From: Lama guanicoe
Lineage: Eukaryota
Length of the DNA: 64,000 bases
Assembly (NCBI GenBank): GCA_013239625.1
Contig: MU053365.1
Coordinates: forward strand, 248,001-312,000
Reading direction: 5' to 3'
Part shown: piece by piece, positions 6,328 to 64,000 of the stretch
Numbering within the stretch: the stretch's first letter is position 1
How the letters are laid out: every line of letters begins with the position of its first letter
Position numbers and translations under genes: made by a program
Notes under the pieces: model-generated
Told to the model about the DNA's origin: nothing
What the model saw: the letters and a program-made list of their open reading frames with translations, nothing else
Database searches by the model: none

Positions 6328-7310
6328 ACAAACAGCTCACACAGCTTAATAACAACAACAAATAAACCCAGTCCAAAAATGGGCAGGAGACCTAAACAAG
6401 CACTTCTCCAATGAAGACATACACATGGCCAGTAAGCACATGAAAAAGTGCTCAATTTCACTAATTATCAGAGAAATGCAAATCAAAACTACAGTGAGGT
6501 ATCACCTCACACCAGTCAGAATGGCCGTCATTCAAAAGTCCACAAATGACAAATGCTGGAGAGGCTGTGGAGAAAGGGAACCCTCCTACACTGCTGGTGG
6601 GAATGCAGTTTGGTGCAGCCACTATGGAAAACAGTGTGGAGATTCCTCAAAAGACTAGGAATAGACTTACCCTATGACCCAGCAATCCCACTCCTGGGCA
6701 TGTATCCAGAGGGAACTCAAATTTGAAAAGATGCATGCACCCCAATGTTCATAGCAGCACTGTTTACAGTAGCCAAGACATGGAAACAACCTAAATGTCC
6801 ATCGACAGATGACTGGATAAAGAAGATGTGGTATATTTATACAATGGAATACTACTCAGCCATAAAAAGAATGAAATAATGCCTTTTGCAGCAACATGGA
6901 TGGATCTAGAGATTACCATACTAAGTGAAGTAAGTCAGACAGAGATAGACAAATATCGTATCACTTACATGTGGAATCTAAAAAATGACACAAATGAACT
7001 TATTTACAAAACAGAAAGAGACTCAGACATAAAAAGTAATCTTATTGTTACCAGAGAGGAAAGAAGGGAAGGGATAACTTAGGAGTTTGGGATTAACAGG
7101 TATGCAGTACCTTATAGGAAATACATAGACAATGAGGACCTACTGTCTAGCACAGGGAACTCTATTCAATAGCTTGTAGTAAGCTATAATGAAAAAGAAT
7201 ATGAGAAGGAATATATGTATATGCATGTATGACTGAAACATTTTGCTGTACACCAGAAATTGACAAATTGTAAACTGACTATACTTCAATAAAAATTTTA
7301 AAATTAAAAA
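6328..7310 (+). mobile_element. 5'-truncated L1 (ORF2 C-terminus, 3'UTR, A tail)
   Basis: ORF2-like peptides ([28 protein letters not shown]). TSD aaaa(a/t)ctgtgcc(c/t)tgat at 6311-6327 and 7311-7327. Confidence 0.92.
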
Positions 7311-19305: not shown

Positions 19306-20098
19306 GTTTTTTTTTAACATTTTTATTGAGTTATAATCATTTTACAATGTTGTGTCAATTTCCAGTGTAGAGCACAATTTTTCAGTTATACATGAACATA
19401 CATATATTCATTGTCACATTCTTTTTCACTATGAGCTAACACAAGATCTTGTATATATTTCCCTATTTCCCTGTGCAGTATAATCTTGTTTATCTATTCT
19501 GCATATGCCTGTCAGTATCTACAAATTTTGAAATCCCAATCTGTCCCTCCCCACTTCCCACCCCCTTGGCAACCACAAGTTTGTATTCTATGCCTATGAG
19601 TCTTTCTGTTTTGTATTTATGTTCTTTTTTTTTTTTAGATTCCACATATGAGTGATCTCATATGCTATTTTTTCTTTCTCTTTCTGGCTTACTTCACTTA
19701 GAATGACATTCTCCAGGGACATCCATGTTGCTGCAAATGGCGTTATGCTGTCGGTTTTTATGGCTGAGTAGTATTCCATTGTATAAATATACCACCTCTT
19801 CTTTATCCAGTCATCTGTTGATGGACATTTAGGCTGTTTCCATGTCTTGGCTATTGTAAATAGTGCTGTTATGAACATTGGGGTGCAGGTGTCATTTTGA
19901 AGTAGGGTTCCTTCTGGATATATGTCCAGGAACGAGATTCCTGGGTCATATGGTAAGTCTATTCCTAGTCTTTTGAGGAATCTCCATACTGTTTCCCACA
20001 GTGGCTGCACCAAACTGCATTCCCACCAGCAGTGTAGGAGGGTTCCCTTTTCCCCACAGCCTCTCCAGTATTTGTCATTTGTGGACTTTTGAATGATG
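19306..20098 (-). mobile_element. Young 5'-truncated L1
   Basis: ORF 19594-20160 encodes ORF2 C-terminus (CTPMFITALFTIAKTWKQPKCP); poly(T) on + at 19306. Confidence 0.92.
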
Positions 20099-20501
20099 TT
20101 CTTTTTCATCTCAGTCCCCAGACAGATCCACAATGGTAGTGGTGATGGCAGTAACAACAAAGGGAGCAGGACTCCTAAGTGCCTAAAACTCTGAGAAAGG
20201 GAAACTTTCTTCTCTGATTGGAGGGTGTGAGGTCATAGGAGTCCCACAAATGGAGGAGAAAGAATAAATTCCAGGTAAACTTTGAAGAAACAATAACCAC
20301 CCCCTACCCCAGTTTGGCAAAAGACGTAAGCCTATAGACCTGAGAAGCTTAGTGAAATCCAAACAGATTAATCCCAAAGAAATCCATGCCCAGACACATC
20401 ATAATAAAACTACTAAAACTAAAGGTAAAGTCTTGAAGGCAACCAGAAAAATAACACCACATTACTTATATTACACTGACTTGAACGACGATTTTTCCTC
20501 A

Positions 20502-23019: not shown

Positions 23020-25084
23020 TTAAAATTCACAGAACTATACACCCCCAAAAGTCAATTTTACTTTACATTAACTTAAAAAAGAAAATAAAAATCAAGTTTG
23101 TGATTCAACCTACAAAACCAATTACTTTTATTTATTAGTAAGCAGTTTCCAAACTCAAAATTTTTAAATTAACAATAACCAAGACCATTGGGACATTTTC
23201 AATAAAGCTTGGAGAGCTTCTGCAAAATGAAAAAAACAAAGTAATTGAATCTGAAGGAGGTTAGGTAACTTGCGCAGTTCCCACTTTCCTTCCCAGGCAT
23301 TTGTTGCTATCACCTGTGCCACGACATCTCCCCAGTGGCCATGAGGGTCACACACCAGTTCCCTGGGCAGGAACTCAGCCAACTGGTCGCAGGGATGAAA
23401 CTTCCCTGCAGACAGCGCCCTCGCCCACTCTCCCCCTTGAGATACTCGGTACCTTCTGCCTGCTGATGCCTGACTGAACGCATCCCTCTGAACTGTGTTT
23501 CCCCAGTAAACACACTTTTATACGTAGTGATTGCTTGCTGCTCAGAGGCAAAAAAAAGACTCTCTTAGAGCTAATTTTAGAGAGAATTAATAATATCAAC
23601 AATAATAATTACAAATAGGCATTGCTATTCTTTTAAGTCAAATTATATGTTGCTATAAACCAGACCTAAAATATGACTTTCTCTACTAGTGAAAGTCTTA
23701 ATTAAAATGATGCATTTTAATATACTTTGCTACATGATATAAATTATGTCTCAGTACCTCCATTTTTGGATTCTTCCCTTTAATGATCTTTGCTGTGCAG
23801 GGTTAAGGAAGAAGAAAACTGGTGATTAATAAAGGCGTGAACAGGTGGCCACACTGCCTCTGAAAGATCAGCAGTGTCATGATTTCTTAATTATTATTGT
23901 ACTCCGTAAAGGGTTTTAAATATATGATGATGTATTTCCGTCTTTGACTCCTGGCACCCTCTAGCTCCTGGCATTACATTGCATTTCGAATAATAATTAA
24001 TGAGAAGTGAGGCGGCTCCATACATTTTATTCCTTGGGTTTCAGTCTCTTAAGTAACCTTCCTGTCACATTTGCTATGCAAATGTGGCGGTACCGCCTGT
24101 CACTTTGGCAATATGGGGGGTCGCCTCTCAGAACGCGCCTTCAAGTACTCTTTTTTGGAATTAGCATTTTATTCCTGAAAGCAGAATTTTCCATATGCCT
24201 TTCAAAGAAGCAGATGAAAGCTGCATAATTGCTCTGTTTTCATCAAGGTGAATGAACCAATGAAACACTGAAAGTATCAGACAATGGAGGGAAAAAATCA
24301 GCTTGTCTCTCCTCTGGCGGGCTGGTGTCTGTGAAAGGGTCCTAAATGTACAATTAGCTACAGAGTACCTGCCATCTCCTTAATAACCACCCACTTAGTC
24401 GGATAAGTGTCCTGCCTGTCCGGACAAGGCCCGTGTTTGATTAGGGGGAATCATTCAATGTAAATGCTGGCCCAGGCAGCCAATCAAAGGCAGAGTCAGC
24501 TTGTCTATTATAGATCTGTCAATCTTGTCTGTTTGCTTATTAAAGTTTCTGTGGCAGACCCAGGGGCCTCCCTTTGGTATGCTAAGTAGTCCTAAACGAT
24601 GCTAACATCTTGGAGTGAAGTCACAGGCCTTTGAATGACTCTGGGAGAGTCTACAGTCTTCTCCAACTTACCAATGCATTTTGTTCCAAAAGTTTGTTTG
24701 CAAGTCAGTTGTTTGGAACTTGAGGCGCATTTTTCCCATGGAAACAATGTTACAAATGATGAGAAGGTTCCCAGGCCAGTCCACAAAAGCCTATTTAACT
24801 CAGAATATGGCTGGACTCTAGGGCCCGCAGCACCAGGGAGCCAGCCGCCATTAAGATCATTGTTGCTATGGGAAAATGGGCTCCCCAGGCTAATTGTGGA
24901 TGCCGGGAGCAATTCTCCAGCCCTTTCTAGCCTCTGGCAGCTGGAGACTAGACTCCCCAGTCCTTCTTTCCTTCAGGCAGGAAGGTGGCAAGGTGGAAAG
25001 TCCTGGGGGAATCAAGGAGAAGGGGTGTGGGAGGTTCAGGGGCTTGGGAGGTTCAGGAGCTTGGGCAGAAAGTTCTGCTAGGGA

Positions 25085-40904: not shown

Positions 40905-41076
40905 GAAACTGATGACAGGATTTGCAAGACTGAGTGTGAAATGAAAACAAAGGGCCTTGTTCAAAACCGATGGCAAATTTCAACAGTCCAACAGCAGAGC
41001 CTCAAGTACCTGGAGCGCCTCTAAATATGGGGTCCTGTGCAAATACAGGGGTCACACCCTCAGGAAGGGGGCTCTG
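40905..41076 (+). mobile_element. MER45A-like hAT-Tip100 element
   Basis: gtgtgaaatgaaaacaaagggccttgttcaaaa...ggggtcctgtgcaaatacaggggtcacaccc. Confidence 0.6.
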
Positions 41077-41079
41077 GCC

Positions 41080-42170
41080 ACCACAAGCTTCCGGCTTCTT
41101 GGAGGAGAGACTGTGGTCATGTCCTGTCCATACGGCTCCACACGCAGAGGGTCTCTCATTTGGATTAACGGCCCTGGGGGGAAGGGGGACAGGCTGCGGG
41201 CCTCAGCACAGACCTTATGTTCCTAAACAACTAGCAGGCTCAGCAGCCTGAGGCGCTCACCCGGGGCCACAGCCTTTTGGCTTAGTGGGGCTTCCTGGGT
41301 TTCCCATGAAGCACGCTCGCTTCCTGGTGTCCACTGATCACTTGCCTACCCAGGCTGCGTCCAGCTACTTAACCTATTGAAAGGCAGAACAAAACACACT
41401 GTGGAAGAAATCAAAAGACAACGCACAAACTGGGAAAACATATTTGTAACTTGGACCTCCAACAGAGGGCTAATAGCTCTAATATTTAAGTACTGACAAA
41501 TTTTTGGATTAAGGACCCAATACCTGAAAGAAACATGTGAAAAAGACATGAGCAGACAGTTCACCAGAAAGATACAGAGCTAGCCCTTAACCAGATTAAA
41601 AGTGGTTTAAGCTCACTAAGATAAGAAACATGCTAACAACAACAACAACTATCCTGAGAATTGGAAGCTGGCCCAAAATAGACACAGATTTGAGAATTAG
41701 CAGACAGCAACATTAAAATAGTTATTATAACTGAATTCTATATGGTCAAAAAGTTTGGTAGAGTCATAGAAGACAGAAAAAAGACCCAGGATGTCTTCAC
41801 AGAGATGAAAACCACAGTGTCTGTGATAACAAGTACATTTGATAGGATTAGCAGTAAATTAGACATAGCAGAAGGAAAGATTTGTGTACTTGAAGACCCA
41901 GCAGTAGAAGCCATCTAAAACGAAACACAGAGCGTCCATAAATGCATACAAAGGATAATACACTGTGAGCTAGCGGAGTTTGTCCCAGGAATGCAGGGTT
42001 GGTTAAACATCTGAAAATCAACCAATACAATTCACATTATTAACAAACTAAAAATGAAATGAGTATGAGCATATCAATAGTGCACAAAGAACAGCTGACA
42101 CGATCCCACACACATTCCTTATAGAAACTCTTAAGAGACTAGGAATAGGAGGGAAAATCCTCAGCCTAAA
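41080..42170 (+). repeat. Copy A of an old ~1.1 kb direct duplication (unique head plus old L1 fragments)
   Basis: Colinear with 46150-47210: caagcttccggcttctt/caagcttccagcttctt, aaagacatgagcagaca, cattaaaatagtta, ccaggaatgcagg, taacaaactaaaaatg. Confidence 0.85.
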
Positions 42171-43344
42171 CAAAATGAAAATCTTAAACACTAGAGCTGA
42201 ATTGTAAAAGGTTTTAGGCAATAAAATATCTCCCAGCAGTAGCATAAATAGTGTATTCCACCCCGGAGAGGAATCATTTTTGATACTTCCTCCTCAATAG
42301 AACAAACTTCCAGTACCATTCATCAATTACAGAAAATAATCACGTCCAGAAAATGAATACAGTGTAAAGCTTATTGATCCTTTTATGTATAATTATGACT
42401 GTATAAAATACAAGGCAACTTTAAGAAAACAAAACATCTGCAAAAGATACAGTTTAAGCAACTACAGTTAATGTAATTTTCTCTCCTTTCTTGATTCCAT
42501 AGTCTTAAAATAGCTGTCAAGTAAAGATGAATGAGTTTCACTTTAAAGCATATTTTTCAAATTCAGCAAAAATATTTTATGTTCAAATACAAGAAAATGT
42601 TGTACTTCTCAAACAACTAAGTTTGCACCTCGCGGTTCGCGCTTTGTTTCACTGATTTAGATGTAAATAAAAACAAGTTAACACAGCGTCTTTACTTTGA
42701 CAATCGTCGTGCTATCACTGTGTATTTAGAATCTACCATTTAAATGTGGGGGGTATGAATTACTACATTACTTCGGAGACTGCAGGATGTGCAGAGAGTG
42801 ATCTCAAAGCATTCCAAATCACTGAGGACTTTCTATGGAAAGGAGCAGTAGTAACCGTGGCAGCCTGTGCTAGGGACAACTGTGTCACGGACTGATCCAA
42901 ATGAACTCCCTCAGAGAAGACAGTGATTTTTTTTTCAAAGGGTAAGTACCTAAAATGTGGTCATTTGAAATTATATATATATATATGTTTTGTCTGTATT
43001 TTTTGAATAACATATAGAATATGACAACTTGACATAAATGATAGCAGACTTTTAGAACTGAAACCAACAAAATCTGTTTTTGAGGATGAAGAATATGGAA
43101 TTACTGACATTATTTTGGATTAGAGGTGTGAGTATGAAGGTGGTCATAAAAACAGGCCCAGCTCTTACTTGGTTTTATTCTTGTAATAAAACTCTTTGCA
43201 AACAATGCCCCGCCTTTATTGCCCCCACCGGGTGCAGGCCACGCCCACTGCCCTGCCCGCGGGCGGCCGCTGCGCCTCGCTCAACTTCTTAGCAAAGAAA
43301 GTGGCCTGATCAGTGTTGGGTTTGTGATCTCCAGAAACACCATT

Positions 43345-43777
43345 GTTTTCTTTTCTTTTTCTTTCTTTCTCTTTCTTATGTTTTAAAAAAAATTTACAAC
43401 TTTTGAAAAGGTTACTCTCCATTTGTAGTTATTATAAAATGTTGACTATATTCCTTGTGTTGGACAATACATCCTTGTGCCCATTTCACACCCAATAGTT
43501 TGTACCTCCCACTGCCCGGCCCCTACATCGCCCCTCCCCTCCCCACTGGTAACCACTAGTTTGTTCTCTGTATCTGTGAGTGTAGTTTTTTGTTGTTGTT
43601 GTTAAATTGACTGGTTTGTTGCATGTTTTAGATTCCACATAGAAGTGATATCATACAGTATTTGTCTTTCTCTGACTTATTTCACTTAGCGTAATGCCCT
43701 CCAAGACCATCTATGTTGCTGCAAATGGCAAAAATTTGTTCTTTTTAATGGCTGAGTAGTATTCCAGTGTGTATATA

Positions 43778-43809
<32 letters not shown>

Positions 43810-44013
43810 CTTCATCCTCAAAAACAGATATATAAGATGGACATTTAGGTTGCTACTATACCTCAGCTACTGTAAATAATGCTGCTATGAACATTTGGGT
43901 GCATGTATTTTTTTGAATTACTGTTTTTGGGTTTTTTTGGACATATACCCAGGAGTGGAATTGCTGGATCATATGATAGTTCTATTTTTAGTTTTTTGAG
44001 AATCTTCCATGCT
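43345..44013 (-). mobile_element. Artiodactyl-type L1 3' fragment with (TA)n
   Basis: T-rich tail at 43345, L1 3'UTR and ORF2-end motifs; short TSD-like aaacacca on both sides. Confidence 0.85.
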
Positions 44014-44474
44014 GGAAAAACACCACTACTTTAGTCCTTTGGACTAACTTTTAATAAGGCAGGATGTTTGGGTTTCTTGAGGGCTGTTGGTTGCTGACAT
44101 CACACAGTGACGTGTAACAAACACTAGTATGAGATAGGTGTCCTGCAGGCAACCACTTTGTATGCCTTTTTAGGAAATGGCATTGCTCCCCCTCCCCCGC
44201 CCATAACACGGCTCCCCAGCTAAGTTCACACCTCTGTGCGCACGCACACATGCGCTCGTGCGCACACACGCTCACACACAAATACCTAGTCCTTTTTCTC
44301 TTCTTCTATGGGAAGTGTGTCTTCAGTGCTCAGTCCTGACGCAGTCAGTCCCTTTCCCCTCTGTCTGGCTAACTGGACCTTCTGGCCCAACCCCCAACCC
44401 CACAGCACCCATGTCCTTTCCTCTGCCACCCTTGCCCCTCCCTCCCCTCTGCACTCCCTACTGCCAGAGAACTC

Positions 44475-44513
44475 TCAGAGACACACAGGTTTTCACATCA
44501 GGTTGATTTTATT
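44475..44513 (-). terminator. Polyadenylation signal and GU-rich downstream element of the CXorf51-like gene
   Basis: TTTATT at 44508-44513 (AATAAA on minus), about 120 nt after the stop, followed on the minus strand by ...aaaacctgtgtgtctctg. Confidence 0.7.
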
Positions 44514-44630
44514 TTTCATTATCAATGTATCCTGTTGGTGTAATATTCAGTGCCTATACAGTTGGCCATTTCTCAATAGCTAGACCCCTGGAGATTTCTC
44601 ATCTTTCTGGGTCTGTGGCCCTGCTCCGAA

Positions 44631-45166
44631 TTACTGGCTGCTGTCTTGTTCACTTGGGGTGGTGGTCTTCTCCTTGGTCTCTTGGACCTGCTCAGCTTCA
44701 TTTTGATTCAGCTCTTCCTTTTTCTTATGGCAATGACTGCGTATCATGGACCCGCTAGCTTTCTTATTAAGTTTCCTTGATGAGGCCGGAGTTTTCTGAG
44801 AGGCCTTTTTCTTCAGGCTCCTTTGACAACGTCTGTTGAATCTAATGGCTGCCTTGGCTACCTGGAAAGACAACAGAGTGAGCACAGAAGGGCACGGGCT
44901 TGGGGAAGGGGGTAGGGGACGGAGGGGAGCAGGGGCTTCAAAAGGAATGTGGGCTGGGGAGGGGGCATGTGCCAGGCGAGGACAGGGCAGGGGTCTTATG
45001 GGGGGTGTCAACGGGCAAGAGGAGCTGGGTGGGTTCAGCTCACCTTGATGCTGCCTCTGGACCTCTGCTCGTAGGGAGTCTTCCCTTTCTTCCCCTCTTT
45101 GGTGGTTGCAGTTGGTTGTCTGGTAGCTGCACCAGGGCCTTGTGACTTCCTGGTCACCTTGGCCAT
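44631..45166 (-). CDS. CXorf51: CXorf51-like small basic protein, two coding exons join(45166..45044, 44861..44631), 117 aa: MAKVTRKSQGPGAATRQPTATTKEGKKGKTPYEQRSRGSIK|VAKAAIRFNRRCQRSLKKKASQKTPASSRKLNKKASGSMIRSHCHKKKEELNQNEAEQVQETKEKTTTPSEQDSSQ
   Basis: ATG at 45166 (gaaATGG). Exon 1 is 123 nt and ends AAG|gtgagc. The 182-nt phase-0 intron (45043-44862) ends ttgtctttccag|. Exon 2 is 231 nt to TAA at 44631. The protein resembles my recollection of human CXorf51A (MAKVT...KGRKKGKTP...RSRSG.K...KKARG.ILR..YH). Orthologue versus paralogue status is not established. Confidence 0.85.
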
Positions 45167-45210
45167 TTCGAAGACTCCCAGTGGTCTGCCCTAGAGGCTC
45201 CGAGCGCCCC

Positions 45211-45323
45211 TATATATACCCCTCCCTCCCCAGGATGATGTGGCGGCCACACCCTTTCAGGTTTATGAGGTCAGCAAGTCACTCCCCTAAGCCAGTGGTG
45301 GCCCTGGGCAGGGCTTGACATCA
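45211..45323 (-). promoter_or_regulatory. Proximal promoter of the CXorf51-like gene: TATA box plus two CRE-like elements
   Basis: TATATATA at 45211-45218, about 45 nt upstream of the ATG. TGAGGTCA at 45266-45273 and TGACATCA at 45316-45323, each one mismatch from TGACGTCA. Confidence 0.65.
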
Positions 45324-46149
45324 CAAAGCCCCATCCTGACCCCTGGAGGGGAGGATGGGGAGCAACCCAGATGTTCTGGTAGGTAGGGGGAGGCATTTTA
45401 GCTCCCCTAAAGAGCCCTTCAAACTGACATGCCACCCTTGGCATCTCCCCATGGCAGTTCTGGTGGGCCACATGGCAAACCTTTCCCCACAGCCAGCCTC
45501 CTCAGGGGTTCATTCTGTTCTCCCCCATCCTTCACCATTACCTACTCTTTGTATCTCTTGCCTAAAACCCATCCATGGTAGTGTGGCCATATTTAAAACT
45601 GGAGATGTGACTCATCTAATTTCCCTCCTACAATTTCTACTTCACACTTTGAAGATCATTCGCCTCTTGGCTACTACCAAGGAACTTTTTCACCCTACCT
45701 CCTTTTTCCAGGGTCCACATAACTGCCCTCAGTGTTCTGCTCTCCAGTCTGAAATCACGGCCTCCAGGCTAGCAAGACCTCAGTGAACACACTTGCTTTG
45801 CTGGGTTTCCTAGTTTTGTTTCAAATGCGTGTGTGGGGGTCTTGCTCATCTCAGGAGGCGTACAACCCAGGCTTAGGTTTTAACAATGTACAGAGGGTAT
45901 GAAGCAGATACACAGATGTCACAAGCTGTGCAGAGTGGCCACATACAGGAGAATACAGCCCAGAACTGATGAGTGTCCCCAGGGAGGAGCAGAGCTTAAC
46001 CAGAGGTGTGTGAGCCCCATGGACAAAGGTCTTCTCAACATGTGTCCTCACAAACCAGACACTTTTCTCATCTTGTTTTACTGCTGGCACCTCCCTTGGC
46101 ACTTACCTCACAGTGGAGACACTGGTCAAGTTCATTTCTATGAACAGCT

Positions 46150-47210
46150 ACAACAAGCTTCCAGCTTCTTGGAAGAGATCCTGTGTGTCAAATCCTGTCC
46201 ATATAGTCCCCTAGGTCTCTCATTCAGGTGGTTGGCCCCGGAGGAAAGGGTAACAGGTTATGGACTACACCCCAGGCCTTATGTTCCTAATCAACGAGCG
46301 GGCTCAGCCAGCCTGAGGTACTTACCTGGGGCCACAGCCTTTTGGCTTAGTGGGGCTTCCTGGGTTTCCCATGAAGCACGCTCACTGCCTGGTGTCCACT
46401 GGGTGCTTATTCACCCAGCCTGCATCACACTGCTTAAAATTATAAGAGGCAGAGCAAAGCACACCATAAACAAATTCAAAAGATGACTGCTTTTTAAAAT
46501 CTTTAGAACAGAGAATCTAAAACCTGAGAGAAAATGTGAAAAAAATATGAGCAGACAATTTATAAGATGTAACACTGGACTTTAACCTTATTAAAAGATG
46601 TTTAAAAGACATGAGCAGACAATTCACAAGAAAGATATAGAGCCAGCCCTTAACCATATTAAAAAGACATTTAACCTCACTAAGGGAAGAAGAATCAAAT
46701 TATAACTCCCTTGAGAAATCAAACTGACCCAAAACTGGCACAGATTTTACAATTAGCAGACGTGGACATTAAAATAGTTATAATAATTGTATCCCATATG
46801 TTCAAAAATTATGTAGAGACATGGAAATTATAAGAAAGATCCAAATTGATCTTATAGAGATGAAAACTATAGCATCAGATGACAAGCACAGTGGGCAGAA
46901 TAAATGGCAGGTTACAAAGGGCAGAAGGAGAAGCTGGTGCACTTGAAGGCAGCAACAGAAACTATCCAGGATGAAGCAGAGTCCATCAAGATATAAAAAG
47001 TACAATGCATTTGTCCCCCAGGAATGCAGGATTTGTTAAGCATTTGAAAAATCAATCAATGTAATTCATGTTACTAACAAACTAAAAATGAGAAGCCAGA
47101 TGGTCATCTCAATAAATGCAGAAAAAGTAATTTGATAAACTCTAATATCTATTCTGTATAAAGACTCTTAGCAAACTAGAAATAGAAAGAAAACTTCCTC
47201 AAACTGATGA
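46150..47210 (+). repeat. Copy B of the ~1.1 kb direct duplication; its L1 portion continues into the downstream L1 block
   Basis: Same anchors as copy A at an offset of about 5.05 kb. Confidence 0.85.
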
Positions 47211-50200
47211 AGACAAAAGACTCTATAACTAACATCACACTTTATGGTAGAAGACTGAATGCTTTACTTCTAAGATCAGGGTCAATAAAAAGATGTCCAT
47301 TCTCATTATACCGAATTTCTGCCCTTGAAATCAGATTAGAAAATGATATAAAACACATCCAGTTTAGAAAAGAAGAATAAAAATTTTCATTTGCAGATGG
47401 CGTCTACATAGAATACCCAATGGAATCTATTTTTAGAAGACTACTGAAACGAGTAAGTGATTTTAGTAACATTGCAAGATACAAAGTCAATATATAAAAT
47501 TCAATTAATTGATTTTCTATGTAGTAGGATAGACAACTGAAATTGAAATAAAAAATTAATCGCATTTACAATAGCATCAAAGTACGAAAAACATAGGGAT
47601 CTGACAAAATATATGAAAGTCCACAATGCAAAAAATGGACAAAAGATTTGAAGGAGAAATTTGCCAAAAAAAGATATACAGATAGCAACTAAGCACTGCA
47701 CACCTAAATGATGGCTGTAATGAGGGAACAGACAAGCAAAAATGTGATGAGGGTGTGGAGAAATTGGAAATTTCATACATTGCTGGTGGGAACATAAAGT
47801 GGTACAGCCCCTATGGAAAACATTTTGGAAGTTGCTTAAAAAGTTAAACATTGGGTTACCATATGACCCAGCAATTCCACTCCTAGGTGTATACCAAAAA
47901 GAATGAAAAATAAATGTTTACACAAAGACTCACACATGAATTTTCAGAGCAGCATTATTTATAATAGCCAAAAAGTAGAATCAGCTCAAATGTCCATCAA
48001 GTGGTGAATGAATAAACAGAACAGGCAATGGAATATTATTTGGCCATAAAAAGAATGAAGTTCTGATACATGCTACAGCATGCTATAGCTCTGAAGTGAT
48101 TATGTGAATTGAAAGAAGCCAGGCACAAAAGGCTGTATATCACATTATTCCATTTCTATGAATAACTATGTGTCAGATTAGGCAATTCCCTAAAGACAGA
48201 GAGTAGATTAGTCCACACCAGGGGCCAGGTGAGGTGGGAGATGGAAAGTGCCAGCCAAATGGTACAGTATTTCCCATTGGAGTGATGAAAGTATTCTAGA
48301 ATTAGATAGCAGTTATGGTTGCACAACCTATGAATAAACTACAAATCACTAAATTGGACACTTTAAATGGTAAACTTATGGTATGTAAATGATATGTCAA
48401 TAAATAAAAAAGTTTTTAAAAGGCCACCAACCTACACTTCTATGTCCAGAAAAATCATCTTTCTAAAATAAAGGAGAAATAAAGATATTCTCATACAAAC
48501 AAAAACTCGGAGAATTTACTCTCAACAGATCTGGTCTATAAGAAATGTTAAAAAGAAATTCTTCACACAGAAGAAAGTAATATTAAACAGAAACTATAAG
48601 CCAAATAAAGAAAAGGAGAGTGTCAAAAAATGAAGAAATGAAGGTAAAATAAAATGAAACTTATTTTTCTTATTCTTAATTGGTAAAAGATAAATGCTTA
48701 TTTAAAACAATGATACTAACAATGTGTTGAATGTTTATAACAAATGAATAAGTTAAATGAATGACTGCAATGTCACAAGACATAGATTGAGGTAAATGAG
48801 AATACCCTGCTATTAGGTACCTGCATTTCATGTGACTTAATATAATGTTATTTGAGGGTGGACAATAATTACTTAATAATGTATATTGTAAACCACAGTG
48901 CAACAATAAAAACATTTATAAATGAAATATAAATTTTATGTCAAGAAAGGAGATGAATTGGAATCATATAAAATGCTCAATTAAAATAGGAGAATACAGA
49001 AAGAGAGGGAGAAAAAGAAAGAAAGAAAACATTTAAAGGAATGGATAGAAAACAGTTACAAAGATGGTAGATCAATAATTAATCTACACGTGATTTATAC
49101 TAGTCAAAGGCAGACGTTGTCAGGATGGACAAATAACAATGGCAACAACAACAGAACACAAGTACCAAAGTACATGGTGTGTACAAGAAACTCATTTTAA
49201 TTATGAAGATTCAAATCAGTGAAAAGTAAAAAAGAAAATTACATCATGCCAACACTAATCAAAAAGAAAGCTGGAGGGCCATATTAAATTTAGACAAAGC
49301 ATACTTCAGAGTAAGGAAGAGTAACAAGGATAAAGAGGGACATTACACAATGATAAAGAAGTTACTTTTACAAAGACACATAGCACTCCTTAACATTTAT
49401 GCACCTAACAACAGAGCATCAAAATACATGAGGCAAAATCTGATAGAACTGGAAGGAGAAACAGTCTACCATTACATTTGGAAACTGCAGCCCCTGTATC
49501 ATCAATTGATAGATCCAGCAAGCAGCAAAATCAATAAAGATATAGATGACCTAAACAGCACTATCAGTCAACTTGACCTAAATGACATTTATAGCCTAAT
49601 CCGTCCAACAACAACAGAATACACATTCTTCTGAGGTTCACATGAAACATTCACCAAGACAGACCACATACTAGGTCATAAAACACACCTTAACAAATCT
49701 AAAAGAATAGAAATCATATAAAGTATGTTCTCTGACAAAAATGTAATTAAACTATAAATCAATAATAGAAAGAGGGCTGGAAAATTCCCACATGTTTGGA
49801 AATTAAACTACACAATTCTAAATAAACCATGAGTCAAAGAACAAGTCTCAAAAGAAAGTTAAAAATATATTTAACTAAATGAAAATGAAAGTACAAGGTA
49901 TCAAACTTTGTGATAGTGCACTAAGCATGACAAAATGAAATACTAAGGTATTAGTTTAATAAAATGTGTGGGATCTGTGCACAGAAGCTATAAAATACTG
50001 ATAAAAGAAGTCAAAGTAGATCTAAAGAAATTGAGAGAGAATCCATGTTATTGGATTAGAAGACTCAATATTCTAAAGATGCCAGTTCTTTTCAATTTGA
50101 TCTGTAGATTCAACATAACCCTGATTAAACACCTAGCAAGCCTTTTTTGATAGATATAGCAAGTTGATCTAAAACTTATGTGGCAAACAGAAGATGTACA

Positions 50201-52765
50201 GTAGCCAACACAATTCCGAAAAAGAAGAACATAGTTGAAAGAGTCATATCACCCCATTACAAGACTTCCAATAAACTGACTGTAATCAAGGCAATGTGGT
50301 ATTGGTGAAAAATAGGCATATGGATGAAAGAAACAAAATAGACTAGAAGTAGACCCACATAATTAGAATCGACTGATTTTTTGACAAACGCACAAAGACA
50401 ATTTAATGCAGAAAGATTGTCTTTTCAACAAATGGTACTGGAGCAATTAGAGATACATCTGCAAAAAGCAAAACAGAAAACAAATGGACCTGGACTCAGA
50501 CTTCACACCCTCAACAGAAAAGAACTCAAAATGGATCAAACAGCTCGATGTAAACCACAGACCTTTGTTTTTGATAAGGAGCTGGGCCCATAATACAAGA
50601 CTTAAACTTCTAGAAGAAAACAGGATAAAATTTGCATGGTCTCAGGTTTGGTGATGAGTTTTTGCATATAACACCAAACATGTGATCTGTGAAATGAAGC
50701 ATGGGTAAGTTGGACTTCGATGACATTAAAACCCTTTGCTCTGTAAAAGACAGTCTTAAGAAAATCAGAAGATAAGCCCAGATTGATAAAAGAACGTATC
50801 CAAACTACACAGAGAACTCTTAAACCCCAACGATGAGAAAACAAACAACCTAATTTAAAATTGTGCAAAAGGTCTGAAGCAATACCTCACCAAACAAGAT
50901 GTACAGACAGCAAAGAAATCTATGAAGAGGAGCCCAGCGTCACTGCTCATTAAGGAATTTTAGATCCAAACAAGCTACCACTACACACATAGTAGGATGG
51001 CTGAAATCCAAAAAACCCAACAATACCAGTGCTGGTGAGGATGCAGAGCAACAGAAACTCTCATTTATTGCTGACGGGGGGCACACACAGTGGGAGAGCC
51101 ACTTTGGTAGACAGTTTGGCAGTTCCTTACAAAGCGAAACATAGTCTCAGCATACAATCCACAAATTGTGCTGCTCGGTATTTAGCCAACTGATTCGAAA
51201 CCTTATTTTACACAAAAAACCTGTAGATGAAAGTTTATTCAAAATCAGTTGAATAATGTTCATTTATGTAGTGTATGAACGTGTATTCATAATCACATGA
51301 AGAAAGCAGCTTTATTTATAATCACCCCAAAACTGGAAGCAACCAAGATTCCTTCAGGAGGTCAATGGGTCCACAAACTGTGGTACATCCAGACAATAGA
51401 ATACTATTCAGTGATAAAATGAATGTGCTATGAAGGAAACCAGCCTGAAAAGGGTACACACTGTGTGATTCCATTTCTACGACATTCTGGAAAAGACCAA
51501 ATAGAGACAGACAACAGATGAGTAGTGGCCAGAGGTGTGGGGAGGAGGTAGCAGTGAACAGGTAAAGCACAAGGGATTTCATAGTGGTGGATACACAGCA
51601 ATGTACATTGGTCAAAACCCACAGAAATTTACAGCCCAGAGTATGAATCTTTTTAAAAAAACCAATTGATAGATCACAAACCCCAACTGGCAGACCGTGA
51701 CTAAACAGTCTAACTATATTACAAATGTAGGACGCGACTTCACTGAAGGGGAGTGGAGGACAAAGTTGCTGACCTAAGTAACTTCGGAAGTGAGTGGAAA
51801 TGTTACATCTAAAGACAAAAGGAACTGTACGTAGCTCTGTATTCTAGTTGGTGAAGTTTCCCACTGTGCGGGTTAACAATTCTGAACTCACCGTTTACGT
51901 ACAATGGGCTTGAAAACAATAATAAATGGATTGCATGAGGTGGGAGCCAGGTTTCTCACTGTTGGAAGGAGAAGATACAGACAAACATGAAAGGGAGGCT
52001 GGAATGAACCCCGTGGTCCTGGACTAGAGTCAGAGACAACAGTATGAAGACGAACAAACAAGTCTCCCATACAGAAAAAGGCCAAATATTTTATATAGCT
52101 ACTACCCTCTCAAGGAGAGAGAGCATAACTCCTGACCCCTTAACTGTACGCTGTGCAGAGTGACTTCCTTCCAAAGAGGACAATATGACAAGGAGGAAAG
52201 AGTAGCTTTGCAGTATGGAAACCTGACAAACACAGTCTCAGCCGAGTGATCAGGCTCAACGTTAACAGTGAAAAGTCATGTTGATTGCACGTTCCCTTGA
52301 TATGATGGAATAAAAATGGCACTTTGCCTCTGTGATCTTCCTCCCCAGAACCCAGAACCCCAGTCTAATCATGAGAAAAATGTCAGCCAAATCCCAGCTG
52401 AGTGTCATTTGACAAAATACCTGACCGGTACTCCATAAAACTGTCAGTGCCATCAAGAACAAGGAAAGCCTGAGAAATGATTGCAGTGAAGAGCAACCTA
52501 AGGAACCATGACAACTCAGCATAATCCTATAGGGACTCTGGGACAGAAAAAGGTGAAAACTTAGGAAATCGGAATAAGATGTCGACTTCAGTAGTAATAA
52601 TGTATCGATAACAGTTCACTCGTTGTGACAAGTGTCTCATCCTAATGTAAGATGTTAACAATAGGAGAAAATTGATGTGGAATACCCAAGAACACTTGGT
52701 ACTATCTTTATAATTTCTCTGGAAATCTAAAACTATTCTAAAATTCAAAGTTTATTTAAAACACA
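47210..52765 (+). mobile_element. Composite old L1 block (L1MB/L1MC/L1MD-like pieces)
   Basis: ORF2 endonuclease peptide (LNIYAPNNRASKYMRQNLIEL), PCYWIRRLNILKM, several 3' ends (at about 48415 and 52760). Confidence 0.85.
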
Positions 52766-55140
52766 CCAAAGAAGCTAGTGTAACTGTGTTCCACATGTTC
52801 CAAAGTGGCTGTGACACCTTTAATCCTCATCTCTATTTTAGAGGTGAGACAACCAAGGCTTCGAGAGGTAAACCAGGTAGCCCAATGTGATGGAGCTTTG
52901 TACATGAGGAATTAGGACTTGAAAGTGCTCTGCGATTCCACAGCCCATGATTTTCCTCTCTCTTTCTGAATTAAAGGAAGCAGGTGGTAGAGCAATGCTA
53001 CTGGTATTGTAAGCCCTGTTTGCTTTGCATGTTAGGATTGTGAAATTGATGATTCTACTTCTGGTTGATTTTTTTTTTCTTTCTGGGTTTCATGATCTGG
53101 AAGCTGTCTGACAGATAACACTGGAAGAGTTAATATTTTTTGCACAGGATGAAATGTGTAGCCTTCTTCCTCTGCCCAGGGGAAGAGAACTGAATGGTGA
53201 TGTGAGCAAATCTACAAACTGAGATCTCTTCCAGGCTGGCTCAGGACCAAGAGGTAGGACCCAGAAGTTACCCTCTGAGACCCAGCTGAACCACTCTCCA
53301 TCCAGAAGGCACCTCCAGCTCCAAAATCGTCTCCTTCCCACATCTCATTACTCAATATAATCTTTTCAAAGGGAAAGGGGGTTCATGGCCCCAAAGTCTC
53401 TCTTCACTCCAAGTACTGAATATTTCCACTTATCACACATCTGTGACTCCTCCTCCCAGAAGAGAGGAAGGAATAAGAAAGGCAACATGGCTTCTCTCAG
53501 AACTTCTCTCCACTGTGTGTCCAACAAAGTCATATTCTTACCCGCCTCCTCTCCTCCAGGTCCTCAGCTGAGTTGAGGCGGAATGGAGGAAGAAGAGGTG
53601 GAGAAAGCCTCAAGCAGAGATTTGTCAAAGCAGGTGACTTGCCGGCGTCATTTTCCTCCTTCCCTTGGGAGACTCAGCAGAGGCTGCGTTACCACACCCC
53701 CATCCTCCTCCTCATTCCCATTTGCTACAGCGCTTAATGTGGTGCACCTTCCAATCACCCCTATGTACAGATGAATAAGCTAAGGCTCAGAGATGTCAAA
53801 TGACTTGTCCAAGGTCACACCACTAGTAAGCGGGATAGAATCCAGAATGCACCTAGAAGATATGCTAGCAGATGGGCAGAGGGCAGACAGCTGAAATAAA
53901 ATATGCCTTTTGGTCTCGATTGCCTCAATGAAGTAGAAACCCGGGAGGCAGTGGCTGTTGTAATGAGGTTTGGGTGAGTGAGGGAGCCAGCATGTGGAAG
54001 AGTCCACATGTCCGGGAGCATCCTTGTCAGCATCCTCCACAGCTCAGGTGTGCATGCAGGTGAGGCAGAGCGCAGTTGCGGGCGCGGACCCTTCAGGCCC
54101 ACGCACCTTCTGTCCCCAGTTCAAAAGACACAGGCGGAAGGCAATCATTCAAACCAGTTGTGTGACCCAGCCACCAGCTGATGGCTGTTTTTCACGGTTC
54201 AGGTGATTCTCTCGGCCCGTGTATGGACAGCCTGAGGCCAGGCCCCCAGGCCTGCAATTTTACAGGCCACTAAGTCAGTGTTGTCCTTAATGCCACAGGA
54301 AAGGAAGGAGAGGGGATTATTTCCTTTTTCAGCCTGAATTATACAGTGTGAACTGCTCACATTTGCCAGGCATGGCTGGTCCTCTGGCCTTGGTGGCCGG
54401 GGTTTGTCTCCACGAGTTGCAGGGCCGCTGTCAGCTCCCACACTCAACCTACCTGGGAAAGACTTCCGCCGCCTCCCCGCTAGGCAGTTTGCATTGTGAC
54501 ATATTTTATAACTGAAACGCCTGTTGGGGGGTCGAATACATTGCTTCCCTGTGCTGCACAACGCGATCGCTCTCCTGCACCGCATCGGCCGCCTACATTT
54601 GTTTTACCTGCCATGGACTCACGCGTCCATGGAAGCCTAGTAATTGGACTTAAAAGGTGATTGTGACATCTCAGCTGAGTTTTGCATTCCCTTCATGCTG
54701 GACAATTGCATTGCTGTTTAGTAGGTATTTAAATGGGAAAGGGTATCTATCAACGGAGGGCAAAAACATGTTGTGTGCTAATCTGGCCAGAGAAAATGTG
54801 GATTTTATGTTAATGTACACATACTTTATATACCTGTGAACAAGAGACAACTTTAAAAATACAATTTTATGGAAGTTGAAACTGTCCATCCATGCAGAAA
54901 CAATTTCTCATCTCAGGAAGGAAGAGCTATTAAGTATCCAGGTTGTGCCATGGACCCCAAGCAGCAAAGGGCCGGAGTATGACAGCCCGTCAGAGCCAAC
55001 TGGGCGAGCTTCTCACCTTGCTGCTGGGCCTCAGCCAGTGAGCATCTCCATGACCACCGTGATGGTCCAAAAAGCAGAGGCGCTTCCTGAGTTTCTTGGG
55101 TTGAGTAAGCCCTGCTGTTCTTTTCAGATCCATCAGAAGT

Positions 55141-55364
55141 GGGGAGGTCCTCCTAGCATCACCACCACAAAGAGAGACATCACCAACAAAAAGAATGGAG
55201 CTCTGTGGAAGGCAGAATACTGGGCCCCTAAGTTATCTATGTCCTAAATCCAGGGGAGGTCCTCCTAGCATCACCACCACAAAGAGAGACATCATCAACA
55301 AAAAGAATGGAGCTCTGTGGAAGGCAGAATACTGGGCCCCTAAGTTATCTATGTCCTAAATCCA
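55141..55364 (+). repeat. 112-bp tandem duplication, 2 copies, 1 mismatch
   Basis: 55141-55252 versus 55253-55364; only caccaac/catcaac differs. Confidence 0.95.
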
Positions 55365-55811
55365 GAACCTGTGAATAAGTTACCTTACACGGTGAAAGGG
55401 AATTTGCAAATATGATTAAGGTCAAAGACCTTGATCTTTAGATAGGGAGATGATCCCAGACTGACTCTATTCTAATCACACGAATCCTTAAAAGCAGAGA
55501 ACCTTTCCTGACTGTAGTCAGAAAGAGATGTCACAGTGGAGGAAGGGTCAAGGGGATGCAGTGTTGTTGACTTTGAGGAGGGAGGAATGGGCCATAAGCC
55601 ACGAAATGCAGACGGTCTCTAGAAGCTAGAAAGACCAAGGAAAGAGATTCTCCCTTAGAGACTCTGGCAAGGAACCCAGCCCTGCTAACACCTTGATCGT
55701 AGTGCAGTGAGACCCATGGCAGACCTCTGACCTCCAGAACTAATCAGATGATAAATTTCTATTGGTTTAAGCCACTAAACTTGTGGTAATGTAGCCATGC
55801 AAACCAATCCA
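55316..55811 (+). mobile_element. MLT1C/D MaLR solo LTR
   Basis: tgtggaaggcagaata...aagccactaaacttgtggtaat; perfect 5-bp TSD AGCTC (55311-55315, 55812-55816). Confidence 0.88.
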
Positions 55812-62051: not shown

Positions 62052-62270
62052 TGGCCCATCTTACATGTGAGAAGACTGAGGCATTTAAAAGCAAAGTAAC
62101 TTGGACCCCAAACTCATGAGTTACAGAGGTAGTAGGAAGTGATATCTACCTCCTACTGCTGATTTTAGGATTAGATGAGATGGTACATGTAAAGCATTGA
62201 GCACAGTGCCCACCCACAGTAATGGCTGAATTAATAATAACTACTGTTACTGACAAATCTTTGCTGAGGA

Positions 62271-62326
62271 CAGGGCCAGCTACGTCATTTCTGAGGCCCA
62301 GTGCAAAATTAAAACATGAGGCCCCT
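62271..62326 (+). mobile_element. MER45A-like 5' part, interrupted by the young L1
   Basis: cagggccagctacgtcatttctgaggcccagtgcaaaattaaaacatgaggcccct. Confidence 0.65.
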
Positions 62327-64000
62327 GAGAGAGAAGCAAGATGGCGGAGTAGAAGGATGCTTGTAGCGCACCCTCTCCCACAAATACACAAAAATTCACA
62401 TCTACGGACCTACTCAGCCAACCAGAGCACCTGCGGAACTCCGACAGAACATCACCCTCTTTGAAAGACAAAGACGCCAAAAATCTGGTAGGAGAAAAGG
62501 GAAAAAGAAAGAATAAAAAGCAGAACAGTGTGGGACTGATCCCGCCGGGAGGGAGCGGCAAAGGAGGAACAGTGCTCGTTCACTGGGTTTCCCCCCTCTC
62601 CAACAGAGAGGCCAGCAGGATGGAGGGGGAGCCTCCGAGGCTCAGATCTGCCCCGAGTACCCCTTGACCGACAGAAATGAGTTATGCGGGCACAAAGGGT
62701 CCCCACGACACCCAGCCCACATTGCGAACGGGCAGCTGGGGCCAGGACAGGTGGCCCGAGCCGGGCGGGGGACGGGGTCGGCTGCGCCGAGGCAGCCCCG
62801 GGGGACTGCAGGGGGCTGCACGCCGTGGCTGGGAGGGGATACAGAGCAGAACAACCTCGGTCCCCCATAAATAGCGAAAAAAGCAAAGCAACACGGCTGG
62901 TGTGCCCTGGGGGGGAGGGGCACCATAGTTTTGTCTCCCCAGACCTGCGCTGCCATTACTGGCGCATCTCGTGAGAAGAGAGGCAGGGCACGACCACAGC
63001 TGCCACGTCCTCCTGTGCGCAGCACCCGGGCGGGGGCGGGGCCGAGCCCTGAATCTGCACCGGGGTCTCCGCGGCCTCCTGGGCAGGACTGAGACTTGTT
63101 TACAGCCCCAGACGGATAGGATCTTTCTGCCCTGGCACCTCAGAGAACTCGCGCCGCCAAAACAAACGAGCTGAGATTTGGCATGGAACCGACCCAAGGC
63201 GGAGCGGGCGGGCAGCCACCCCTCTTCCTGGCAGGAATGCAGCACCTGACCACGGGGCTGGGAGGGGGCACGATCCGCACACCTGCCTCTCCCCGAGTGC
63301 AGCATCTGACTGTGGTATCAGGAGGGGGAGTGACCTGCTTGCCCACCGGGTAAGAGCTCAGCTCCTGGCCCAGTGTTGGGAAGGGGCATGATCTGCTAGC
63401 CAACAGCCACTGGGAGCAGCACAGACGAGGGCGCCAACAGAGGGCCTCTGGAAACAGCAAGCTGAGTTCACAAAACAGGGCGAAGACACAAAGACCTCTC
63501 CATAAAATCATTAAGAGCACAGCGTCTCCAGGAGAACTAGATAACTGATACTCCTTAAGCCACAGTGCCAGAGAGAGATGAGCAATATAAAGAAGCAGAG
63601 GAACCACTCCCAATTAAAAGAGCAAGAGAAATCCCCTGAAAGCACGATCAAGGAAATAGACATTGATGGCCTACTAGATCAAGATTTCAAAAAAGGAGTG
63701 ATCAAAGTACTGAAGGAACTAAAAGAAATAGTGTTTAGAGATATAAAATATGTCAAAAATGAAATTGAAGCTATAAAGAACCAAGTAGAATTAGTAAACT
63801 CATTTGCTGAGATGAGAACTGACCTAAAGGCTGTACAAAGCAGACTAGATAATGCAGAGGAACGAATAAGTGACCTAGAAGACAGGACAACAGAAAGCAC
63901 CCGATCAGAACAGCTGAGAGAAAAACAAATAAAAAACAATGAGTACAATATAAGGGACCTATGGGATAATATAAAGCATGCCAATCTATGCATGATAGGG
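62327..64000 (+). mobile_element. Young LINE-1, 5' end (CpG-rich 5'UTR and start of ORF1), runs off the window
   Basis: Starts gagagagaagcaagatggcgg with a YY1-type motif at about 62338-62347. About 1.25 kb CpG-rich UTR. Preceded by TT|AAAA endonuclease-type site at 62309-62314. Confidence 0.92.
63578..64000 (+). CDS. L1 ORF1p N-terminal 141 codons (partial, open to the window end)
   Basis: MSNIKKQRNHSQLKEQEKSPE...SRLDNAEERISDLEDR...NIRDLWDNIKHANLCMIG; coiled-coil and LWDNIK motifs typical of mammalian ORF1p; no stop in 423 nt. Confidence 0.9.
   Translation, partial: MSNIKKQRNHSQLKEQEKSPESTIKEIDIDGLLDQDFKKGVIKVLKELKEIVFRDIKYVKNEIEAIKNQVELVNSFAEMRTDLKAVQSRLDNAEERISDLEDRTTESTRSEQLREKQIKNNEYNIRDLWDNIKHANLCMIG

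Follow-up and report, generated by a model that had tools for sequence, protein, structure and literature searches.

The human genes CXorf51A/B, which are located at Xq27.3, belong to a eutherian X-linked family of small, basic and disordered proteins; they are duplicated in palindrome P17, and deletion of one copy is common and showed no association with azoospermia in that study (PMC8481210; 10.1101/2020.12.29.424738). The gene described here, from a 64,000-nucleotide stretch of the guanaco genome (referred to as the window), resembles CXorf51A/B in being small, basic, disordered and apparently X-linked and in belonging to a duplicated family. However, it is placed distal to AFF2 instead of at Xq27.3, and it lacks the GHYH motif. 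The repeats that bracket it are direct, 75% identical and exclude the gene, whereas palindrome P17 is inverted and nearly 100% identical.

In mouse, Gm6812 and 1700020N15Rik are presumably members of the same family. According to the published data, Gm6812 (X:68.9 Mb) is expressed in the testis and its single knockout is fertile, and it differs by one missense change from 1700020N15Rik (X:69.9 Mb), which is located just past the Aff2 coding SNPs at 69.83 Mb (PMC7270182). The two mouse genes therefore form a near-identical pair ~1 Mb apart across Aff2, with one member in the interval of the guanaco gene, but the mouse pair is recent or homogenized, whereas the guanaco duplication is ancient. 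Another comparable system is template switching during replication (FoSTeS/MMBIR), which generates insertions with large target duplications; the cases described so far are young, their copies are almost identical and the microhomology can still be read. The guanaco locus is similar in layout, with a direct target repeat around a putatively distant insert and one repeat copy that runs on into the element downstream. Unlike in the described cases, the junction marks have decayed, and the borders between repeat and insert, when inspected for microhomology, were too diverged to read.

In ruminants, genes annotated as 'spermatid nuclear transition protein 4-like' form arrays in sheep (JEQ12_019644-019674) and goat (AB1E19_020384-020449), with BOS_26442 in cattle, and these arrays sit on contigs of 144–149 Mb. 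A derived Cys-x-x-Cys motif is common to them and to the camel orthologue of the guanaco gene, but the arrays contain many copies, whereas the window contains one. Because ~630 locus tags lie between the sheep array and the TP3-like cluster (JEQ12_020308/020310), this array is probably located elsewhere on the X chromosome. The literature searched, which was mostly open access and available in part, contained no description of the guanaco duplication or the ruminant arrays, and the accessible portions of PMC12663436, PMC11579321 and their supplements yielded no match for the CXorf51/transition-protein family.

Colinear direct repeats of 70–80% identity had been predicted at 41080-42170 and 46150-47210. 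A self-BLAST of the window bore this out, aligning 41077-42163 with 46147-47201 (E = 1e-120; 70.0% identity when gaps are included, over 1,106 columns), and a local alignment placed the two copies, both on the plus strand, at 41077-42190 (copy A) and 46147-47230 (copy B), with 74.7% identity over 1,048 ungapped columns. This pair is the sole off-diagonal match of at least 1 kb among the 35 self-BLAST matches of at least 60 bases listed, and beyond its ends neither side showed any similarity (scores of 34 on the left and 39 on the right versus shuffle maxima of 36 and 43).

The two copies have a common mosaic structure, in which non-repeat DNA (41077-41385 in copy A) is followed by three L1 pieces (ORF2-3′, ORF1 and RT types), and they are colinear across every internal junction. 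The identity is 78.8% in the non-L1 left part and 72–75% in the L1 parts. The first piece in both copies matches a separate L1 ORF2 3′ stretch, and in copy B the RT-type piece likewise matches a separate old L1 (0 of 200 shuffles as good for each); the tested part of the RT-type piece of copy A did not match that L1 (43 of 200). The ORF1-type piece of copy A showed a BLASTP match to an L1 ORF1 of the same window (E = 3e-5). At the DNA level, the ORF1-type piece was unmatched to a second ORF1-type stretch (80 of 200 shuffles as good for copy A and 82 for copy B), and Pfam detected no L1 domains in nine frames of the old L1 pieces. Past the repeat end, copy B goes on as L1 (47232-47640, 0 of 200 shuffles as good) through 47231-48410 on the plus strand as far as the 3′ end of this element, whereas copy A stops at ~42190 with no L1 continuation (61 of 200), which agrees with the original prediction. 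The remainder of a second old L1 follows on the plus strand at 48420-52760 (ORF1-type sequence, then ORF2 and the 3′ end, matching other L1s of the window); we take this L1, broken up by a nested L1, to be the probable source of the ORF1 piece of the repeat.

The common mosaic and the run-on into L1 in copy B only indicate one old segmental duplication rather than independent transposable element hits, again as had been proposed. The pair is at least 1 kb long and colinear and has repeat/non-repeat junctions in common, as in segmental duplications; recent ones are usually defined by at least 90% identity, and the 74.7% observed here thus denotes an ancient event. That the copies instead represent two independent insertions of an undescribed, internally deleted L1-derived element is highly improbable. 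Although their divergence is close to that among independent old L1 copies, 300 bp of the unit have no other match in the window, and its L1 pieces are in a non-canonical order, such that two of these elements, 5 kb apart in one orientation, would hardly be expected. The K2P distance between the copies is 0.315 (bootstrap 0.28–0.36), compared with 0.34–0.42 for three old and 0.18–0.19 for two young L1 pairs in the same window. The repeat is therefore approximately as diverged as the old L1 copies, and the duplication long predates camelids.

Within the repeat, a perfect run of 56 bp (41263-41318, identical to 46328-46383, plus strand) lies in a 127-column tract with 116 identities. Permuting the whole alignment never produced a run of this length (0 of 5,000), and permuting the non-L1 part did so once (1 of 5,000); the observed run likely reflects a short gene conversion or shared constraint. 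Its predicted RNA structure was not unusual (z of −1.2 to 0.0). A 20-mer from this run occurred in one metagenomic contig, apparently of microbial or phage origin and unrelated beyond those 20 bases, which was dismissed. At the sites that differ between the copies, copy A is more GC-rich than copy B (128 versus 88, p = 0.008), which does not indicate which copy is native.

Between the copies lies an intact two-exon gene on the minus strand that encodes a 117-amino acid protein similar to CXorf51 and transition proteins 3/4. The first coding exon (45044-45166, ATG at 45166) is separated by a 182-bp GT-AG intron (44862-45043) from the second coding exon with the stop codon (44631-44861), which matched the protein P0002 at 92% in tblastn. 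An AATAAA signal is located at 44508-44513, ~120 bases past the stop codon, and the 980 bp of upstream DNA (45167-46146) contain a TATA box ~50 bases before the ATG. CRE-like 8-mers found by a motif scan ~107 and 150–157 bases before the ATG may contribute to a promoter. Strong tblastn matches of the fetched family proteins were confined to 44634-45166 (next best E = 0.04), and the window thus contains one gene copy. The protein has a pI of 10.6 and 30 Lys and Arg residues, and the Atlas model of P0002 has a mean pLDDT of 0.34, in line with a small, basic, disordered product. As expected of a family member, the intron is short, in phase 0 and at a Lys-Val junction; two unnamed relatives (P0008 and P0024) appear to have been translated through an intron at this site. 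A phmmer search with the protein P0001 recovered 25 proteins (E ≤ 0.001), and of the 20 checked, 12 are named themselves or cluster with named proteins, for the most part as CXorf51A-like or transition protein 3/4-like. P0001 carries PF27987 in its precomputed domains; our own Pfam scan did not return this domain. The product putatively acts in spermatid chromatin. In an index of sequencing runs queried with 44100-46100, 14 of the 24 rows listed held at least half of the 204 words (0.76–0.98; five organism labels), and 9 rows were flagged as a possible source, whereas the RNA rows held 0.06–0.13 of the words and thus give no evidence of expression.

The dromedary orthologue (Cadr_000002584) is identical to the window protein at 110 of 117 residues. 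The GHYH motif encoded by exon 2 of canonical CXorf51A is replaced by a Cys-containing motif, in which the window protein has Arg in place of the first Cys of Cys-x-x-Cys. The absence of GHYH indicates that the gene is a paralogue and not CXorf51A itself. Camels retain a second, canonical CXorf51A-like paralogue, represented in dromedary by P0073 (named CXorf51A-like, 50% identical), which has kept GHYH. Trees of 28, 32 and 21 rows were built from the fetched proteins, the smallest without Kogia and 10 TP3-like rows. The window gene grouped with seven ruminant-type CxxC rows with support of 99/96 in the 21-row tree, from which long branches had been removed, and of 75/63 in the 32-row tree. 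AU tests against a camel-only duplication gave p values of 0.02, 0.06 and 0.06, the first test having been named after the tree was inspected. The protein sequences thus suggest that the gene belongs with the X-linked ruminant arrays, with support that depends on sampling and is weaker in the larger tree. Searching metagenomes with the Cys-motif alignment produced 282 pattern matches, none of which was confirmed as a relative.

The original prediction also held that an intron-containing CXorf51 copy had been moved by a DNA-mediated mechanism, possibly off the X chromosome, and that its flanks do not obviously resemble the L1-dense Xq27 context. The DNA-mediated origin is upheld, since the retained intron, TATA box and upstream DNA indicate that the copy arose at the DNA level; a retrocopy or L1 transduction was rejected on the same grounds, with no poly(A) tail detected in the sequence. 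Relocation off the X is contradicted by the dromedary gene order. In the CamDro3 gene table and the rows available from a published supplement (PMC8402689), Cadr_000002584 falls between IDS (2582) and AFF2 (2587 and 2589), with FMR1 at 2598, and of the 16 named tags found from 2514 to 2659, 15 are Xq26-q28 genes in the human order. One tag with an immunoglobulin name (2590) is out of place in this run, which suggests locally imperfect scaffolding or annotation. X linkage near FMR1 is thereby supported through protein orthology, and the window gene is very probably located on the X between AFF2 and IDS. The flanks would therefore be, in line with the earlier expectation, not the SLITRK2-FMR1 interval but the next one on the same X arm. 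An autosomal location is very unlikely. In its favour, the flanks have 47–51% GC, the window contains no direct anchor gene and only protein orthology ties it to the dromedary map, but the orthologue, whose neighbouring tags are IDS, AFF2 and FMR1 with no autosomal neighbours, is on a scaffold of 121.5 Mb (the longest in that assembly being 124.7 Mb). A placement at Xp22 suggested by neighbouring UniProt accessions (ACE2, A0A5N4C2M1) was overturned by the locus-tag order. The available parts of PMC7468183 and PMC8224694 contained no chromosome table, and tag 2584 was missing among the rows listed from a MERS-vaccine transcriptome table. With the gene very probably still on the X near its parent gene, the event would be a short-range duplication of an ordinary kind, in a testis gene family that is prone to such changes, and not an escape from the X.

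The remainder of the cassette consists of an AT-rich block (42191-43400; 34% GC, with a GC-rich end at 43196-43290) and a younger L1 3′ fragment (43430-44010, minus strand) that matches the L1 3′ ends at 6640-6994 and 19548-19991. Except for a T-rich stretch, the block has no second copy in the window. Its frames gave no Pfam match above the cut-off (best E = 0.03), three frames had no match in PDB, and the best Atlas score for one frame (0.83) was under the bar; Rfam identified only a tRNA-like SINE head in the whole window. To the left, an old DNA-transposon-like piece (40909-41076) ends exactly at the start of copy A and weakly matches a second copy at ~62263-62323 (score 27 versus a maximum of 26 in 200 shuffles). 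We take this piece to be MER91-like. By eye, it has no matching 8-bp target duplication, which would mark copy A as its native neighbour. One event would suffice if copy A were a local duplicate of 1.1 kb that had strayed 4 kb from its source and had no part in the origin of the gene, with the block being native conserved DNA; the CpG o/e of the block (0.42, versus 0.40 in the left flank) and its impression of conserved non-coding DNA are compatible with this. We consider it improbable, because the repeat would then bracket the sole gene found in 64 kb by chance.

We tentatively favour, at somewhat less than even confidence, a short-range DNA-level duplication within Xq27-28 with the repeat as its junction scar. 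The gene would be a dispersed, intron-containing paralogue of the X-linked CXorf51/spermatid transition protein 3/4-like family that arrived between AFF2 and IDS in one DNA-level event, long before the camelid split and probably by the stem of Artiodactyla. In this scenario, synthesis during replication or break repair would have traversed the 1.1-kb L1-mosaic segment before jumping to a distant template. There, ~3.4 kb comprising the gene, its 1-kb promoter, its 3′ flank and the AT-rich block would have been copied, after which synthesis would have returned to where the segment begins, leaving the order segment-insert-segment. We infer that the guanaco gene is the moved copy and that the repeat was made in the same event by such a template-switch route; the only 1-kb repeat of the window closely brackets its single gene copy, and the insert is flanked by direct repeats, one of which passes without a break into the element downstream. 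An identical layout would result, by common mechanisms, if the gene had occupied the AFF2-IDS interval beforehand, perhaps from the boreoeutherian ancestor onwards, and the block, gene and segment were tandemly duplicated, with subsequent deletion of the left gene copy; copy A would then be a stump and its junction with the block the tandem junction. This alternative is possible but on the unlikely side, although nearly as likely as the best explanation, and the repeat is therefore a candidate target duplication of an insertion. The family forms tandem arrays in sheep and goat, the repeat is nearly as old as the old L1 copies, and if 1700020N15Rik, a mouse testis gene just distal to Aff2, is of the same family, the position may be ancestral and nothing was moved in this event. 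However, a decayed tandem pair requires two events in addition to the original dispersal, the DNA to the left of copy A shows no trace of a second gene or its upstream region, and the mouse gene, being one missense change from Gm6812, may be a recent and independent arrival.

The significance of these findings is low to modest, as local duplication and movement of X-linked testis gene families are known and camel annotations already list the protein as hypothetical. Camelids carry two CXorf51-family genes that diverged deeply and apparently lie on either side of FMR1-AFF2, the guanaco gene appears to be a single-copy relative of the large ruminant arrays, and the locus may retain the junctions of the gene's origin. 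A bolder and doubtful reading is that the repeat preserves the trace of one template-switch insertion, which took place at least 60 million years ago and gave rise to the artiodactyl Cys-motif branch of transition-protein genes; camelids would have kept the founder as a single copy at its AFF2-IDS landing site, whereas in ruminants it would have been relocated and expanded to tens of copies at other places on the X. If this is true, the locus would provide a dated birth site and a mechanism for an ampliconic X-linked testis gene family.

Self-comparison of the window revealed one long off-diagonal direct match between 41077-42163 and 46147-47201 (E 1e-120), and local alignment carried this repeat to ~42190 and ~47230. 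The two arms of the 1.1-kb direct repeat, copy A (41077-42190) and copy B (46147-47230), are 74.7% identical over 1,048 ungapped columns (K2P 0.315, 0.28-0.36). The left 300 bp is 78.8% identical between the copies and has no further copy within the window. The remainder is built of three stretches of L1 that do not follow the canonical order, from the ORF2 3' end, ORF1 and the RT region in turn, assigned from matches to other L1 copies within the window. The ORF2 3' pieces of both copies matched a young L1 better than 200 of 200 shuffles; against an older L1, the piece of copy A did not exceed shuffles (27 of 200 were as good). The RT piece of copy B also surpassed all 200 shuffles against L1, and the tested part of that of copy A did not rise above them. 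The ORF1 piece matched the window's own ORF1 protein (E 3e-5), and no DNA-level match to a second ORF1-type stretch was found. Past the repeat end, L1 runs on from copy B but not from copy A, and no alignable sequence is shared by the two sides outside the repeat boundaries. The self-match, the shared L1 mosaic and the L1 continuing only from copy B had been described correctly in the original prediction. A 56-bp perfect run within the repeat is longer than expected by chance (0 of 5,000 and 1 of 5,000 permutations), which suggests later conversion or shared constraint.

The K2P of the L1 part of the repeat is 0.34-0.36. The value for the whole repeat comes close to those measured between independent old L1 copies of the window (0.34, 0.37 and 0.42 for three pairs) and is well above those of two young L1 pairs (0.18 and 0.19) and two LTR pairs (0.11 and 0.25). 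At an assumed rate of 1.5-2.5 x 10^-9 changes/site/year, it would correspond to ~60-105 million years. Elsewhere, a young L1 5' end with a GC-rich leader occupies 62330-64000, with an open ORF1 start at 63578 (PF17489, E 6e-8), and an old LTR-like element begins with a near-perfect 113-bp tandem duplication (55141-55365, 99%).

The gene between the two copies is encoded on the minus strand and consists of exon 1 (45166-45044), a 182-bp GT-AG intron and exon 2 (44861-44631). It is preceded by a TATA box and CRE-like 8-mers and followed by AATAAA, and its predicted product has 117 residues and a pI of 10.6. A search with exon 2 identified a Camelus ferus protein at 93%, whose cluster includes dromedary KAB1253040.1 (Cadr_000002584) on a 121,484,823-bp contig; this orthologue differs from the window protein at 7 of 117 sites, so the window would come from a camelid distinct from both of these camels. 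Intact splice sites, and a reading frame that stays open in two or more camelid lineages, suggest that the gene is alive. Wider searches yielded proteins annotated as CXorf51A-like or spermatid transition protein 3/4-like, and tblastn with the retrieved family members gave no further copy within the window. Human CXorf51A (Xq27.3) is described as basic, disordered and eutherian, with relatives in camel, cattle and sheep (PMC8481210, in part), and CXorf51 as expressed in testis, its deletions showing no association with azoospermia (10.1101/2020.12.29.424738, in part). From the family names and this literature, the product would be a basic disordered spermatid protein.

The window was tied to the dromedary map through protein orthology, not aligned flanks. 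As good synteny anchors, 24040-24560 and 54400-54800 are non-repeat and by eye resemble conserved enhancer-type DNA. In the CamDro3 tag-to-gene table (PMC8402689 supplement, in part), 2514 is PNMA5, 2565 and 2570 are CXorf40A, 2567 and 2569 MAGEA8, 2568 HSFX3, 2574 TMEM185A, 2582 IDS, 2587 and 2589 AFF2, 2598 FMR1, 2615 LDOC1, 2625 ATP11C, 2639 ARHGEF6 and 2659 INTS6L; among the matches listed, 15 of the 16 named tags follow the human Xq28-to-Xq26 order, the exception being 2590, which carries an immunoglobulin name. Judging from this tag order, Cadr_000002584 sits between IDS and AFF2, a position that does not support the proposed relocation of the gene off the X. A buffalo transition-protein-3-like gene is placed 5 Mb from an X marker assigned to BRS3/CXorf40A-like (PMC7685427, in part).

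Because the intron and promoter are kept, the gene is a DNA-level copy and not a retrocopy. Copy A and the gene are separated by a block (42191-43400) for which Pfam, PDB and Atlas searches of translated frames found no identity. It is AT-rich and CpG-retaining, contains signals resembling splice sites, an AATAAA close to 43179 and a cluster of GC boxes (43196-43290), and may represent the end of a gene or conserved non-coding DNA. Bases 43072-43096 of the block have a 25-base inverted copy at 43805-43829 (96% complementary, 20 bases exact), 708 bases away, inside a young L1 fragment and directly after a (TA)n run, which may stem from a templated insertion of recent date or from patching during assembly.

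Three histories yield the layout flank-A-block-gene-B-L1. In the first, to which we give somewhat less than an even chance, template switching would have put the block and gene into a single segment, leaving a 1.1-kb target duplication; one event would account for both the dispersed gene and a repeat bracketing the one gene detected across the 64 kb. A somewhat less probable course, in which an already resident gene underwent tandem duplication and the left copy was then lost, agrees with the arrays that the family forms in sheep and goat. Mouse 1700020N15Rik is presumably also a member of the CXorf51 family. Its location at X:69.9 Mb, just past Aff2, fits such a course; however, it is only one missense change from Gm6812 (both from PMC7270182, in part). 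That the repeat is a stray local copy unconnected with the gene is improbable. Under each history, the exact abutment of a MER91-like transposon end on copy A is a coincidence, and no target duplication that would decide between them was seen.

A Cys-x-x-Cys motif is common to the camel orthologue and to proteins of sheep, goat, cattle and Kogia, and the same site is a GHY(H) motif in elephant, armadillo, cat, horse, colugo, mouse lemur and P0073, a second, canonical dromedary member 50% identical to the window protein. In exon 2 (44631-44861), the window copy carries Arg in place of the first Cys of the motif found in both camels. A 97/93 split set the canonical group apart in a 28-row tree, and the gene joined the ruminant Cys group and Kogia in a 32-row tree (support 75/63) and the ruminant Cys group in a 21-row tree without long branches (99/96); topology was consistent and support strength differed. 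Forcing the two camel genes together was 15-26 log units worse (AU p 0.02, 0.06 and 0.06). In ruminants, the fetched proteins (the P0004 cluster, P0112, P0129, P0011 and P0137) form two separate clusters on one X-sized contig, namely Cys-motif arrays (sheep 019644-019674, goat 020384-020449, cattle BOS_26442) and TP3-like genes (sheep 020308/020310, cattle BOS_25393). No account of the arrays turned up in the literature searches, and none of the duplication in the open-access papers covered. The motif sharing, trees and AU tests favour, but do not prove, a split of the two camel genes before camelids. The feature itself is real and of a known kind, an ancient short-range duplication within an X-linked testis gene family.
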